From Escherichia coli (GTDB taxonomy: Bacteria; Pseudomonadota; Gammaproteobacteria; Enterobacterales; Enterobacteriaceae), in assembly GCA_902500055.1 (NCBI GenBank), contig GCA_902500055.1_4131.1: a stretch of DNA of 64,000 bases; one strand, given 5' to 3'. The position numbers and the translations under genes were made by a program. Below, one piece after another: positions 43,772-62,404 of this stretch. Every line of letters starts with the position of its first letter. Within the stretch, counting starts at the first letter, position 1. A model generated the notes under the pieces. The model was not told the origin of the DNA and searched no databases. It was given only the letters and a program-made list of their open reading frames with translations.

Positions 43772-44218
43772 TTAGTTATATGCAGTGAATAGATCAATAT
43801 TTTTATCATCTACACTGATTAATTTACCAGTTGAACTAACAAACACAATATTACCACCAGGGGTGATTTGAACACGCTGGTTTACTGAATATTGATCACT
43901 AAGGTTATAATTAGCCCATTCAACTACATAACGCTGTTCAACACCGTTAGTATCATATAGATAAACGTGTGTAACGTCACGCATTTTTAAACGGTCTAAC
44001 AGTGTAGAGTTGTCCATGAAATCCGATGGTGTATTGCTGCGTAATGCAATACCGAACTCACCGATAACAGTACTAATTGTCAGTCCGTTTGAAAAACGGC
44101 TACAAAGAGTCTTCTCATCAGCAATATGCATCCATAAAACATTCTTTACATCAATATCAACAAATTCACAGTTTTCAAAAACCAAACCTACTTTGGAAAC
44201 TTTACCATTAAATTGCAT
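43772..44218 (-). CDS. Hypothetical protein
   Basis: ORF. Confidence 0.5.
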   Translation of the reverse strand: MQFNGKVSKVGLVFENCEFVDIDVKNVLWMHIADEKTLCSRFSNGLTISTVIGEFGIALRSNTPSDFMDNSTLLDRLKMRDVTHVYLYDTNGVEQRYVVEWANYNLSDQYSVNQRVQITPGGNIVFVSSTGKLISVDDKNIDLFTAYN

Positions 44219-44663
44219 TAGTAACTCCTATTTTTTTATATTTTAAAATTAAATCACTCACGGCTTTCATTAGCTTATATGGAATAGCTAACTCTTGAAC
44301 AGTACTTTCCATAAAATGTTCTTCTTCTGTATCATAAAATGTTGAACTATAGTGTTCACAATCATCTATACTATCATAAAAAGAAGACGTAAGTTTATCA
44401 ACAATGACAGTGATTTGTTTGTCAGTTTTGGCACATCCTACCTGAACGGTTAATCCAATATCATCAGCCTCTACACGAATTATAAACGAATTATTAGTAT
44501 AGTTCAGCCAACAATCTTCACCAAAGTATACAACACTGTGTTTCTTCTGAAATGAAGTTGCGGTGTTAAGAACACCAATAACAACATCAACTGTTTTTTC
44601 ATTTAAAATATTAGACATTTTTATTCCTGCTTCGTATGTTTCGTGAAATCTCAAATATTCCAT
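44208..44663 (-). CDS. EExxFQxST-motif family protein (variant EEEHFMESTV)
   Basis: ORF; C-terminal motif shared with paralogs. Confidence 0.5.
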   Translation of the reverse strand: MEYLRFHETYEAGIKMSNILNEKTVDVVIGVLNTATSFQKKHSVVYFGEDCWLNYTNNSFIIRVEADDIGLTVQVGCAKTDKQITVIVDKLTSSFYDSIDDCEHYSSTFYDTEEEHFMESTVQELAIPYKLMKAVSDLILKYKKIGVTNAI

Positions 44664-45039
44664 TCAACTGCTCAACAGTTAAACCCTGTAAATCGTAAAC
44701 TGTTGATAGCTGAAAGAACATCTCTGAATCTATAGTATCATGTTCAATTGGAAGACTCAAGAGGTCTTTATTAATAAAATAATCATATGTTCGAATTGTC
44801 AAAGAATCACCAAAGATATCAATGTAAAATTTCGGAACATTATGTAACGAAACATCTATTAATATGTTTTCAGCATATCTACAAGAAATTTTAGAATTAT
44901 TTTTATAAGATTGGTATGAAAAATTATAAGGTTCATCGACCAATGTGTATGATGAGGTATCACCTTCGGAAAATATTACACCACATTCAATAAGATGTGT
45001 TAACGACTTAGGTGGAATTTTTAACATTTCACTTCCCAT
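44611..45039 (-). CDS. EExxFQxST-motif family protein (SEMFFQLSTV)
   Basis: ORF; conserved motif. Confidence 0.55.
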   Translation of the reverse strand: MGSEMLKIPPKSLTHLIECGVIFSEGDTSSYTLVDEPYNFSYQSYKNNSKISCRYAENILIDVSLHNVPKFYIDIFGDSLTIRTYDYFINKDLLSLPIEHDTIDSEMFFQLSTVYDLQGLTVEQLNGIFEISRNIRSRNKNV

Positions 45040-45457
45040 CCTTACTCATATTACTACGGATCACCCCACTAAGAAAACATATTTTCCTTAATGTATCATA
45101 ACTGATATTTGTAAGATCATGTACAAAATTCAACTGCAAGTACATTTCTTCAGTTAATTGATTAAATGTATCATCAACATGAATGTTAGTATGTTCCGTT
45201 ATATCTATTTCTATATTATTTTCCCAAATATCAATGCTAACAGCATAGTCTGATGTATGTCTGGATTGAACTGAAATAAAAATATTATTACTGTTGTATA
45301 ATGTCTCTGTGTATCCATTCAAAAATGATCCAACGACAACATCAAAAATGCCATCTCTAATTGGGTTTTTTGTTTCAAACGTATCACTACAAACTTGACG
45401 GTATACAATGTCAACATACTTATCAATTAAAGTAAACAAATAACTCATTGCATTCAC
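45029..45457 (-). CDS. EExxFQxST-motif family protein (variant TEEMYLQLNFV)
   Basis: ORF; conserved motif. Confidence 0.55.
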   Translation of the reverse strand: MNAMSYLFTLIDKYVDIVYRQVCSDTFETKNPIRDGIFDVVVGSFLNGYTETLYNSNNIFISVQSRHTSDYAVSIDIWENNIEIDITEHTNIHVDDTFNQLTEEMYLQLNFVHDLTNISYDTLRKICFLSGVIRSNMSKDGK

Positions 45458-45464
45458 CTATATA

Positions 45465-45495
45465 AGAAAAAAGGCCGATTCATCGAATCAGCCTT
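45465..45495 (-). terminator. Rho-independent terminator (aaggccgattcatcgaatcagcctt)
   Basis: Hairpin with U-run on minus-strand RNA. Confidence 0.5.
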
Positions 45496-45682
45496 AAGTA
45501 TAACACAGTAGAAGTTAAAAAGTCAACTTCTAAATTACAGCATCCAAGAGGAATAAAAAGATACTGTTAGAGGGTAACGAATATAATGAATTTGAGGGTA
45601 ATATCATTATACGTAAAAAAGTGATAGCTTCTATACATAAGGAGGAATCAGTACTGACTAGAAGCTATCGGGTTAAACGATT

Positions 45683-60255: not shown

Positions 60256-60453
60256 TTATTCAGTATCCTTCGGTTTAGAATGCAAACCATACTTTTCATC
60301 ATAACGATCATAGGTAGTGCCATTAGTACTGGCTTTGATGCTTTCTGTTCGATTGATTTTTTCAATCTTAACACCACGATAACCAATCTCTTCTTTAAAT
60401 TGTTCCCATGATTCACGTAGACTCATTTTAGCCCCTTTTGTTATTTCATACAC
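60256..60453 (-). CDS. Small hypothetical protein
   Basis: ORF. Confidence 0.5.
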   Translation of the reverse strand: MYEITKGAKMSLRESWEQFKEEIGYRGVKIEKINRTESIKASTNGTTYDRYDEKYGLHSKPKDTE

Positions 60454-60584
60454 TCACGTAGGTCAATCTTTTCAACTGAACCACCGAGTACTAGATAGTG
60501 AAAATTAGAATCTTTGTTTGCCATATTCAAAAGATCTGCTTTCTGTTGAAGCGTAAAGCGTGAAGTACTGTTACGTACTGGCAT
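60441..60584 (-). CDS. Small hypothetical protein (47 aa, not in ORF track)
   Basis: ORF MPVRNSTSRFTLQQKADLLN... with TAAGGAG SD. Confidence 0.4.
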   Translation of the reverse strand: MPVRNSTSRFTLQQKADLLNMANKDSNFHYLVLGGSVEKIDLRECMK

Positions 60585-60586
60585 AG

Positions 60587-61030
60587 TTACTCCTTAAAGT
60601 AGATATCACGAATTTGCTTAATCATCTCTAACTCTTGAAGTCCTATCATACCAAAGTTTTCTTGTACTGTCAACTGTTGGAAGTACATTTCCTCTAAATT
60701 ATCATAAGGAATATCCACTAATGATAAAGGAACACGTTCACCACGGTATAGCAGATCTTCAACTAAAAGTTTTAAAATCATGATAGAAAATGAATCTTTT
60801 TGGATATGAAATTTGTAAAATGTCTGGTTAGTACTGAACATTGTATTTGATGGATTGAAACCCATTTCAACAAATACTGTATCTTTATCATTATGTGTGA
60901 CATATGTACATCTTGAATTCGCAAGAACTTTAGATTTTGGGAAATAAAAATCACCCATCAACTTCTGTCGTTTCCAATCCTCGTATACAACTGGATGCTT
61001 AACCTTCTTCAATTGGTGCAGTACTGTCAT
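60587..61030 (-). CDS. EExxFQxST-motif family protein (LEEMYFQQLTV)
   Basis: ORF; motif. Confidence 0.55.
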   Translation of the reverse strand: MTVLHQLKKVKHPVVYEDWKRQKLMGDFYFPKSKVLANSRCTYVTHNDKDTVFVEMGFNPSNTMFSTNQTFYKFHIQKDSFSIMILKLLVEDLLYRGERVPLSLVDIPYDNLEEMYFQQLTVQENFGMIGLQELEMIKQIRDIYFKE

Positions 61031-61410
61031 AGTTTTTTCCAGTCCAATGAATCGAAATCGATTTGCTCAGGATTATCAACAGCGACAACTCGTGCATTAT
61101 GAAGAGTTTCAAAGTAGCCGTTCCACGGTGTTCGTAATGGAACTGTCACATCGCCAACTTTAACCAAGAATGAATATTCTGGTGATATTGGGTCAAACCA
61201 CTCTTTTTGTTTAGCATTTTCAACGATAGTTTCGTGTTCTTTAGTATAGCAATTATCTTGCTTCATATAAAACACCCAATGCTCTTTTAGGCACTGTAAA
61301 GCAGCAACTGCTTCCTCTTTAGAAGACCATTGAATATCAATTGTATTAAGAACGTCATAACAATTTTCAGTGTCCCCTGTAGTGTAATGTACTTCAATGC
61401 TGTATTTCAT
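61027..61410 (-). CDS. Hypothetical protein
   Basis: ORF. Confidence 0.5.
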   Translation of the reverse strand: MKYSIEVHYTTGDTENCYDVLNTIDIQWSSKEEAVAALQCLKEHWVFYMKQDNCYTKEHETIVENAKQKEWFDPISPEYSFLVKVGDVTVPLRTPWNGYFETLHNARVVAVDNPEQIDFDSLDWKKL

Positions 61411-61865
61411 TAATCATCGCCTTTTAGTAATTTACAAATTTCAATCATATGATAATAACATGTATTCCAAAATTGTCCATTAGTACTTCCAACATCATGC
61501 ACAGTACTTTGTTGGAAAACATATTCATCGTTGAACATCATTTTAATATCATCAATGTAAAATTCTGGTTTTGAATCATTATTGTATTCAATACTCGTTT
61601 CACCATCTGGATCAAGTGAAATTGATGATATGTCGTGAATTCCTCTCGGATTTGTTGGATAAATTCTCAACGTAAGAGGATAGAAGTCTGGATCGGTTTC
61701 ATAAGTATATTCGATTATGTAATAACCATCACCAGTAATTGATTGATATTTAAATGTAGTTTCAATTGAATTTGAGATGTTAAATCCCAGTTTCTTTATC
61801 TCATGTAGATGTGATAATATTTTATGTAAAGATCCTAAAACATGAATCAAATTATCAATTTTCAT
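61410..61865 (-). CDS. EExxFQxST-motif family protein (DEYVFQQSTV)
   Basis: ORF; motif. Confidence 0.55.
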   Translation of the reverse strand: MKIDNLIHVLGSLHKILSHLHEIKKLGFNISNSIETTFKYQSITGDGYYIIEYTYETDPDFYPLTLRIYPTNPRGIHDISSISLDPDGETSIEYNNDSKPEFYIDDIKMMFNDEYVFQQSTVHDVGSTNGQFWNTCYYHMIEICKLLKGDD

Positions 61866-62404
61866 TTACGATCCTTTGAAAAGTTCAGTTTAAAAGTTTT
61901 ACCAAATTCCATTGTAGCTTTACCCAGATTGTTAATATTTTCTTTCAACATTTCTTGCATCTTCCTAATACTTTCAATCCAGGCTTCTTCTTCGATACGA
62001 AGAATTGGTCGCAATCGTTCCTGAATATCGTTAAAACGTGTATTGAGTTCAACCAATGATTCATATGTGAAATCTTTCATATCGATAATAGTACTTCTTT
62101 GAAAGAATTCTTCTTCAGACAAATTACTTAAAATGATTTTATCACGACCAATAGATAATGTCAATTCATCATCTTTATTTTTTTTAATTACAATACTAAT
62201 AGGTGTTTTTAATGTAATGCAAATATCATGATTATTAAATGTTTCAGTTTGGTTTGACATTCTGAATTGAAGTTTCCCAGATAAAGCATGTACTGGTGAT
62301 GGTTGCTTTTTACCAGTAATAACATCTTCCCATGAATCGAGAATATTATTAATAATTTTAACATAAGGAATTGGCATATATGCACCTATGAAAAATCCAC
62401 GCAT
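61862..62404 (-). CDS. EExxFQxST-motif family protein (SEEEFFQRSTI)
   Basis: ORF; motif in mid-protein. Confidence 0.55.
   Translation of the reverse strand: MRGFFIGAYMPIPYVKIINNILDSWEDVITGKKQPSPVHALSGKLQFRMSNQTETFNNHDICITLKTPISIVIKKNKDDELTLSIGRDKIILSNLSEEEFFQRSTIIDMKDFTYESLVELNTRFNDIQERLRPILRIEEEAWIESIRKMQEMLKENINNLGKATMEFGKTFKLNFSKDRK

Follow-up and report, generated by a model that had tools for sequence, protein, structure and literature searches.

Lineage-specific expansion of small accessory proteins in giant viruses is a known kind of phenomenon. Multigene families of large eukaryotic DNA viruses, i.e. MGF360/505 of African swine fever virus (ASFV) and the host-range families of poxviruses, evolve by 'genomic accordions' and are thought to counter host defences. 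In bacterial toxin loci, the SUKH 'polyimmunity' loci consist of arrayed, non-identical immunity genes, and Ocr, Arn, T7 Gp2 and the anti-CRISPRs are small acidic phage inhibitors of host proteins. In Bacillus phage G, a zinc ribbon underwent a lineage-specific expansion to about 35 copies, which was termed 'unprecedented' (PMC7824862); strings of non-identical esaG genes are mentioned for the secretion system of type VII (T7SS; PMC9484751), and a 'genomic accordions' model of virus gene-family evolution is cited in PMC13359090. Here we analyse a stretch of 64 kb (contig GCA_902500055.1_4131.1, 34% GC; hereafter the window) that belongs to a phage of the Asteriusvirus type (PBECO4/121Q group), and a large family of small genes on its minus strand whose products share the consensus motif h-[TS]-E-E-x-[YFL]-F-Q-x-S-[TL]-[VI]. 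Thirteen open reading frames (ORFs) that had been noticed by this motif are true relatives and make up a single family. Asteriusvirus phages are jumbo coliphages with a genome of roughly 350 kb.

The first-pass annotation of the window had reported these thirteen minus-strand genes between 44208 and 62404, and all 13 ORFs, with the five motif strings quoted from them, lie exactly where it had put them. It had put the motif usually at about 30 residues from the C-terminus. In 11 of the 13 ORFs, 30-37 residues separate the invariant F from the C-terminus, and in the two exceptions, which have C-terminal extensions, the distance is 65 residues (55058-55606) and 80 residues (61862-62404). The range does hold the thirteen members but was drawn too narrowly, as a scan of the rest of the window by eye and by scoring matrix adds three more, at 11449-12111 (the weakest), 23980-24576 and 29588-30106. 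Two scores are given for each member below. The first is that of a position-specific scoring matrix (PSSM) of 13 residues, from which each member was left out in turn and which was compared with 227 non-member ORFs of at least 50 amino acids (aa). The second is the E-value of an independent hidden Markov model (HMM) built from 82 members from elsewhere in the genome of phage 121Q and from a Klebsiella phage, with the orthologues of the window genes left out.

44208..44663, minus strand: member; 151 aa as ORF, DTEEEHFMESTVQ; PSSM 24.3 bits; HMM E = 5e-7
44611..45039, minus strand: member; 142 aa, IDSEMFFQLSTVY; PSSM 24.0 bits; HMM E = 2.5e-9
45029..45457, minus strand: member, F replaced by L; 142 aa, LTEEMYLQLNFVH; PSSM 19.5 bits; HMM E = 9e-6
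46168..46533, minus strand: member; 121 aa, YTEESLFQYSMIN; PSSM match; HMM E = 3e-6; AlphaFold2 model
46526..46954, minus strand: member; 142 aa, NTEEKFFQYCLVN; PSSM 20.6 bits; HMM E = 9e-4
50696..51085, minus strand: probable member, divergent 'EFQK' variant; 129 aa, ADEADEFQKRTVY; PSSM 14.6 bits (reached by 3 of 4860 decoys); HMM E = 0.34
51544..51897, minus strand: member; 117 aa, KTEEEYFQMSTVQ; PSSM 27.0 bits; HMM E = 2.5e-7; AlphaFold2 model
54657..55061, minus strand: member; 134 aa, YSVEEEFQYNLLY; PSSM 17.9 bits; HMM E = 0.03; overlap of 4 nucleotides (nt) with 55058..55606
55058..55606, minus strand: member, basic, with C-terminal extension; 182 aa as ORF, RTEEERFMLSTIN; PSSM 20.1 bits; HMM E = 3e-7
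55815..56207, minus strand: probable member, 'EFQK' variant; 130 aa, DSEEDEFQKNTTL; PSSM 18.0 bits; HMM E = 0.36
60587..61030, minus strand: member; 147 aa, NLEEMYFQQLTVQ; PSSM 23.6 bits; HMM E = 7e-4
61410..61865, minus strand: member; 151 aa, FNDEYVFQQSTVH; PSSM 20.0 bits; HMM E = 6e-5; 4-nt overlap with 61862..62404
61862..62404, minus strand: member, 80-residue tail after the motif; 180 aa as ORF, LSEEEFFQRSTII; PSSM 22.8 bits; HMM E = 3e-8
29588..30106, minus strand: member outside the first-pass range; 172 aa, STEENVFQQSLIY; PSSM 21.8 bits; HMM E = 6e-6
23980..24576, minus strand: member outside the first-pass range, basic N-terminal extension; 198 aa as ORF, LNDEEYFQESIVT; PSSM 18.3 bits; HMM E = 0.045
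11449..12111, minus strand: weak candidate member outside the first-pass range; 220 aa, ISSDLMFQYSLIH; PSSM 11.7 bits (reached by 13 of 4860 decoys); HMM E = 0.15

A PHROG profile and the metagenomic orthologue P0010 suggest that the true start of 44208..44663 is M16 (~44618). Likewise, 55058..55606 starts at residue 21 (~55546) in both the 121Q annotation and P0062, and the 121Q annotation of 61862..62404 begins nine residues later than the ORF; cluster representatives related to 23980..24576 are P0057 and P0079. The tandem occurrence that had been claimed is evident: neighbouring members often overlap by 4-11 nt and form pairs and triples, the genes at 44208, 44611 and 45029 being a tandem triple, and the overlaps suggest operons. 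Just upstream of the first-pass range, a string similar to the motif, LSKEEMFDFILNH, occurs in the minus-strand ORF 43341-43760 (139 aa), at 55-60 residues from the C-terminus; it stays below the family threshold (at most 10.4 bits). Should this ORF represent a member in decay, as it may, the family could exceed the motif count.

With each member left out in turn, the PSSM finds 16 of 16 at the correct residue, at 11.7-27.0 bits, while the best of the 227 non-member window ORFs reaches 10.4 bits; at most 13 of 4860 shuffled decoys attain the score of any member, and none does so for 10 of the 16. The independent HMM places 13 of the 16 ahead of all decoys, whether reversed or shuffled (E = 2.5e-9 to 0.045), and among the thirteen first-pass ORFs it recovers 11 at E = 2.5e-9 to 9e-4, with 54657-55061 at E = 0.03. 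In this test 50696-51085 and 55815-56207 fall among the decoys (E ~0.35), their membership resting on the PSSM and the motif position, and 11449-12111 is borderline as well. MAFFT places the motif in register across members; alignment and HMM building from these ORFs had been proposed as checks. Members from the window and from the 121Q, Klebsiella and Erwinia phages are alike in being small proteins encoded on one strand, with the motif 28-90 residues from the C-terminus.

At the motif, Q is encoded by CAG seven times and by CAA seven times, S by AGT seven times and TCA three times, and F by TTT 11 times and TTC four times. Synonymous codons differ, and for Ser even the unconnected AGT and TCA are both in use. 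Conservation of the motif is therefore at the level of protein and not of DNA; a DNA-level element, i.e. a repeat or a regulatory site, is ruled out on the same ground. Pairwise similarity is scarce. Phmmer links only 44611/46168/46526(/45029) and 44208/51544, and single-seed pairwise and iterative HMMER searches stopped at four members. Comparison of two disjoint subfamilies by hhalign gives a probability of 85.6% (E = 5.6e-6) over the last 41 columns only, which take in the last strand, the helix of the motif and the final one. The family alignment contains no run of 7-10 conserved columns, and in two family alignments no other column is at least 90% conserved apart from the start Met.

That this is a multigene family, as had been stated, holds well beyond the 16 copies of the window. 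A scan of the 121Q genome with a PSSM trained on window sequences only gives 68 ORFs of at least 12 bits (against two shuffled decoys) and 63 ORFs of at least 14 bits; all 68 lie on the plus strand, which at ~62-126 kb of 121Q is the counterpart of the minus strand of the window. With 618 annotated features in 121Q, the family amounts to about one gene in ten. Seven of the copies follow one another in tandem at 58.1-61.8 kb of 121Q, immediately past the end of the window, and about 41 others form an array at 160.7-189.2 kb. The RaK2-like Klebsiella phage OU509535.1 (32% GC) has 48 ORFs of at least 14 bits (against three decoys), and a 50-kb syntenic segment of the Erwinia phage Hallingskeid (40% GC) contains 22 copies (against no decoys), which are likewise mixed with tRNA genes and an HNH gene.

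Beyond these genomes, an exhaustive HMMER search over 1.84 billion cluster representatives retrieves only 39 clusters at E <=1e-3. The motif is present in all 33 new sequences examined among them, and the ten clusters that were looked up come from metagenomes or run assemblies, the longest contig measuring 351 kb. One metagenomic match is syntenic with an isolated 121Q copy, between the genes of a ribosome-hibernation factor and a CCA-adding enzyme. A homologue search with family alignments in 5.8 billion sequences returned almost only orthologues of the same phage group, because of the E-value scale at that database size and the word index. Judged from these searches, the family appears to be restricted to the 121Q/PBECO4/RaK2 clade of jumbo myoviruses and to be old within it.

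The family also appears to be previously undescribed. In an all-against-all BLAST of 121Q (E < 1e-5), only 11 of the 63 members are linked to any paralogue. The 16 window members are spread over 26 PHROGs, all function-unassigned and none matched by more than three members; Pfam gives nine families, each matched by a single member (best E = 7.5e-4), with no match shared among the 16; NCBIfam gives a single match by one member and none that is shared; and the best match among PDB sequences has E = 0.72. We found no description of the motif or of a superfamily in the open-access literature, including the RaK2, CBB, phAPEC6, 121Q and Sharanji papers, and the open-access jumbo-phage survey of Iyer et al. 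and jumbo-phage reviews, some of them from 2026, do not mention the family. Paralogues as such have been counted before: 22 ORFs in CBB (PMC5259590) and 'nearly 10% of gene products' in the RaK2 paper; Hua et al. suggested that genomes may reach jumbo size through tandem duplication, and drew attention to a 121Q array of >30 similar genes (PMC5646251). Outside the window, 121Q has tiny similar genes (~60-77 aa) at 133-134 kb and 156-161 kb, in BLAST clusters of 12, 6 and 5 copies. They form a different family, are the larger of the BLAST-detectable clusters of small genes, and may include the array of Hua et al. What is new here is the size of the family, its invisibility to BLAST, and a fold without a convincing solved relative.

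The fold was predicted for two of the 16 members, and structure prediction, another check that had been proposed, gives the same picture for both. The AlphaFold2 model of 46168-46533 (predicted local distance difference test, pLDDT, 88.5; predicted template modelling score, pTM, 0.83) consists of a helix at residues 4-15, five strands, a helix at 87-96 that carries the motif, and a helix at 104-114; that of 51544-51897 (pLDDT 89.2, pTM 0.81) has helices at 3-14, 84-93 (motif) and 100-116, again with five strands. At 11% identity, the two proteins show an identical order of elements, the motif is a helix in both, and T/S is placed as its N-cap in both. The predicted common scaffold opens with a helix at the N-terminus, continues with an antiparallel sheet of five strands and closes with two C-terminal helices, of which the first is the motif.

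Among 98 members from two genomes, the only motif positions that are free by entropy are -2, +2 and +6 relative to F; E is acidic in 91-93%, Q is kept in 94% and S in 86%, a degree of conservation that is partly circular, as the set was chosen by PSSM score. A spacing of i, i+4 and i+8 corresponds to one stripe along the helix, which we read as its solvent-exposed side. About three-quarters of the helix surface would then be packed, with the aromatic residue, F, T/L and V/I probably forming the packed faces, and the helix would act as the structural keystone of the predicted fold. Such a role would explain why the motif alone is still recognisable while the rest has drifted to 10-25% identity.

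Foldseek against BFVD finds only uncharacterised proteins of Asteriusvirus, UB, CBB, Yersinia phage fHe-Yen9-04, RaK2 and GAP32. The sole analogue that recurs in both structure searches is the acidic Mam33/p32/p22 fold. Mam33/p32 (gC1qBP)/p22 proteins are eukaryotic and mitochondrial, with a helix-sheet-helix-helix order and seven strands. The predicted phage fold would share this order, with five strands instead of seven; none of the 16 members matches PF02330, even at E up to 1.

Other interpretations of the motif region were discarded. The cleavage site of tobacco etch virus (TEV) and 3C-type proteases is E-x-x-Y-x-Q followed by S/G. The likeness of EE-x-Y-F-Q-x-S to it is superficial: there is an additional residue between Q and S and the spacing differs, the motif is an ordered helix within a domain, and no 3C-like protease is annotated in 121Q. 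An XRE-type helix-turn-helix (HTH) in the last helix of 46168-46533, 'GLTLDEVNAILAVSR', was rejected as it occurs in one subfamily only, the chain is too short to add a recognition helix, and Pfam gives no HTH match. Fusions to other domains, as possible hints of function, were discarded too: motif-like strings occur in two long ORFs of the Klebsiella phage (381 and 500 aa), but these look unrelated to the family, one being RNA-ligase-like and the other nuclease-like. The extensions of the longer true members match nothing.

The window is closely related to known phages, with 95-97% DNA identity between 44208-62404 and several Asteriusvirus phages and 98-100% identity to 121Q for most window proteins. 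All 16 window members have one-to-one orthologues in 121Q, with a median identity of 95.8% (other genes 99.2%). The ratio of nonsynonymous to synonymous substitution rates (dN/dS) between the two ranges from 0.04 to 0.76 for members, with a median of 0.20 (other genes 0.11), and all computable values are <1. Hence, the copies are old and individually maintained by purifying selection, and not recently amplified. The most strain-variable copy is 46526..46954, with 59-91% aa identity within Asteriusvirus; against 121Q it has 63% identity and a dN/dS of 0.45. Between 121Q and the Klebsiella phage, a BLAST-detectable counterpart exists for only 30% of members (median identity 28%), as compared with 51% (44% identity) for other 90-230-aa proteins of the same region. 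At this distance the family is among the fastest-evolving parts of these genomes, yet the motif is kept. The diversifying function that had been suggested for the family is therefore only partly in line with the data: divergence between genera is fast, but the one-to-one orthologues and the median dN/dS speak against recent diversification.

The expression context was examined by promoter-like sequences. Within 44-63 kb, the ten strongest sigma70-like sites (11-12 of 12 positions) are all on the coding strand. Among them are:

51929..51956, minus strand: sigma70-like promoter match, TTGACT-16-TATAAT, 11 of 12 positions (consensus match only)
60116-60088, minus strand: perfect 12-of-12 sigma70 consensus match (TTGACA, 16-18 nt, TATAAT)
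58256-58227, minus strand: the same, 12-of-12 consensus match
57709-57681, minus strand: the same, 12-of-12 consensus match
48123-48096, minus strand: the same, 12-of-12 consensus match

The start codon of 51544-51897 follows 32 nt downstream of the end of the -10 hexamer of 51929..51956. In the whole 121Q genome, 107 near-consensus sigma70 sites lie on the plus strand versus 14 on the minus strand, and 73 of the 107 are located at 50-200 kb, which holds 59 of the 63 members. For CBB, the equivalent region of short ORFs with RpoD-like promoters was assigned to early, host-takeover genes (PMC5259590). None of the 121Q members coincides with a 'virion structural protein' feature of the 121Q annotation, and the members are mostly acidic, with a median isoelectric point (pI) of 4.8 and a net charge of -9. 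The T4-type late-promoter octamer TATAAATA is depleted in the window (3 copies versus 13.9 +/- 3.6 expected); as a timing marker it was set aside as uninformative, with 17 copies in the whole 121Q genome.

The explanation we favour, with a probability of roughly 45%, is that these genes are an ancient and very divergent paralogous family specific to the 121Q/PBECO4/RaK2 jumbo myoviruses, built on a keystone helix scaffold and serving as an early-expressed panel of host-protein binders. The structural half of this explanation is much more secure than the functional half. The proteins would be of ~110-220 aa, usually acidic and non-virion; T or S would cap the motif helix, E-E would open it, and Q and S would be its near-invariant polar residues. 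Host sigma70 RNA polymerase would transcribe the genes early in infection, as operons whose genes overlap, and the variable sheet and loop surface of each paralogue would bind a different protein of the host or of a competing element, neutralising or redirecting its target. As a set, the paralogues would be stoichiometric binders that serve host takeover or counter-defence. The role in host takeover or anti-defence that the first-pass annotation had suggested is plausible in this form, given the strand- and region-biased sigma70 sites, the non-virion annotation, the acidity and the fast divergence between genera.

Several points weigh against this explanation. Each of the two AlphaFold2 alignments included sequences from the subfamily of the other protein, which makes the models less than fully independent, and the burial of F, Q and S is deduced from helical periodicity. 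The near-invariance of E-E, Q and S exceeds what core packing needs and could mark a shared functional site. Total sigma70-like matches are not above the shuffled expectation (103 versus 111), only the strongest being strand-biased. We found no experiment or transcriptome for any member, 'early' being based on promoter-like consensus matches, and 4 of the 16 window members are basic, not acidic.

The main alternative is a shared docking helix. The motif would then be an exposed interface to one common partner, with the variable bodies supplying different cargo, or with the copies in competition for that partner, and the family would consist of adaptors or regulators; candidate partners are a phage or host protease or unfoldase (ClpP-like, HslV-like, ClpA-like or ClpS-like in 121Q), a chaperone, or RNA polymerase. 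Near-invariant polar residues in a conserved stretch confined to 13 residues are typical of interaction motifs, the hhalign homology is limited to the C-terminal 41 columns, and Clp, HslV and ClpS genes are indeed annotated in 121Q. However, the motif is confidently predicted as an integral helix of a compact domain and not as a disordered linear motif, the single variable stripe suggests that the helix is mostly packed, and the protease genes are >100 kb away, with no co-variation or gene-neighbourhood link. We regard such a docking role, with any of these partners, as unlikely, if worth keeping in mind. Less probable again is that the two C-terminal helices are an oligomerisation module that drives homo- or hetero-oligomers, e.g. 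acidic trimers as in Mam33/p32, and that the paralogues act as mixed assemblies and not as independent binders. The arrangement of members in overlapping tandem pairs and triples would suit such assemblies, whereas the lack of any Pfam MAM33 match among them does not.

That the proteins are small enzymes with E-E, Q and S as active site is improbable: acidic and polar residues are near-invariant within one helix, but no other position is conserved family-wide, no catalytic family of Pfam, NCBIfam or PDB is matched, and ~65 divergent copies of one enzyme per genome would lack precedent. Slightly weaker still, and very improbable in our view, is functionless filler, i.e. tandem duplicates that fill an enlarged capsid according to the 'ratchet' idea for jumbo genomes. 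The duplication route of Hua et al. and their array of >30 similar 121Q genes (PMC5646251) would fit it. Against it, every window copy has an intact orthologue in 121Q with all computable dN/dS values <1, the motif is kept at the protein level through synonymous change, the family is retained in three phage lineages with different hosts and GC contents of 32%, 34% and 40%, and single copies stay syntenic in a distant relative. Chance or low-complexity resemblance among unrelated acidic ORFs, for which only the lack of significant similarity between most member pairs could be adduced, can practically be dismissed in view of leave-one-out scores that are cleanly bimodal versus real ORFs, a 121Q scan far above decoys, recovery by the independent HMM, and the same strand, fixed motif position and same predicted fold of the copies.

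The first-pass annotation had also described the members as interleaved with tRNA and HNH endonuclease genes. This is correct: five tRNA genes lie at 47729-54023, among the family members, together with two Pfam-supported HNH genes and a further look-alike:

46971-47672, minus strand: HNH endonuclease gene; Pfam HNH, 22.5 bits (cut-off 21.4)
52490-53014, minus strand: HNH endonuclease gene; Pfam NUMOD4 and HNH_3
49398-50102, minus strand: HNH-like ORF; motif seen by eye, without Pfam match

At the syntenic places, 121Q lacks counterparts of the window's HNH genes; they are therefore recent mobile insertions, not partners of the family. A sigma-factor gene (34722-35687, minus strand; annotated so in 121Q, gene 167) is located among family members, and a C-5 cytosine DNA methyltransferase gene (62902-63762, minus strand; Pfam E = 1e-33) lies just past the last one; genes of both kinds are also found in the member-rich segment of Hallingskeid.

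The window contains other gene arrays. At 36-11468 on the plus strand, about ten tandem paralogues of 270-415 aa, nearly all beginning with MLPF(A/G/V/P)RMxKYGN, correspond to the 121Q genes 234-248, which are annotated 'RCC1-like' and with 14 copies form the largest BLAST-detectable paralogue cluster of 121Q; a Gly-rich protein of 245 aa (5800-6537) is encoded within this array. Arrays of hydrophobic proteins of ~105-140 aa on the minus strand (12154-14593, 18327-19362, 26801-27955 and 37279-38123) resemble multi-pass membrane proteins by appearance and may represent more small paralogue families. The minus-strand gene 14661-15434 (257 aa) has 60% identity to its 121Q counterpart (dS ~2) between flanking genes of 96-100%; it looks like a single-gene mosaic replacement, and a comparable divergent patch occurs at 53710-54667.

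In these jumbo coliphages and Klebsiella phages, several of which are under study for therapy, >80% of the genes are 'hypothetical'. Roughly a tenth of the genes can now be assigned to one family, which has a recognisable signature and a fold predicted with confidence. This turns a multitude of orphan genes into one tractable problem and provides natural variants of one scaffold for parallel target screens. With regard to genome growth, the family offers a handle on jumbo size as ancient duplication and extreme divergence under selection, and not as recent accordion-like amplification. Paralogue counts based on BLAST miss the family; for large phage genomes, a motif- or profile-based census is needed. 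With ~65 copies (~10% of genes) it might be the largest paralogous protein family in any bacteriophage so far and an early-deployed library of diversified binders besides, although we rather doubt that both hold together. If they do, a fixed helix-on-sheet scaffold with hypervariable surfaces would be a binder library deployed early to disarm many host defence and housekeeping proteins.

Among the known systems, Ocr, Arn, T7 Gp2 and the anti-CRISPRs differ from the family in that there is no significant match to them in sequence or fold. The arrays of SUKH and esaG genes, like those of the family, consist of small, non-identical genes in tandem, and each of their products binds and neutralises a different toxin; in contrast, the phage genes have no match to SUKH/SMI1_KNR4 or any other Pfam immunity family, and they are found in a presumed early region without adjacent toxins. 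With the zinc ribbons of phage G the family shares a small single domain, present in dozens of copies per jumbo genome and function-unassigned. Unlike them, it has a predicted alpha/beta fold, no zinc ligands and roughly double the copy number, only 11 of 63 members are linked by BLAST, and it spans several genera and not one phage. The families of ASFV and the poxviruses are comparable in that tens of divergent paralogues are arrayed in variable genome regions; virus type and fold are unrelated, and the phage arrays, at a dN/dS of ~0.2, are old and stable within the genus and not recently amplified. By analogy, a binder library of the kind proposed here would be the phage counterpart of these poxvirus and ASFV multigene families.

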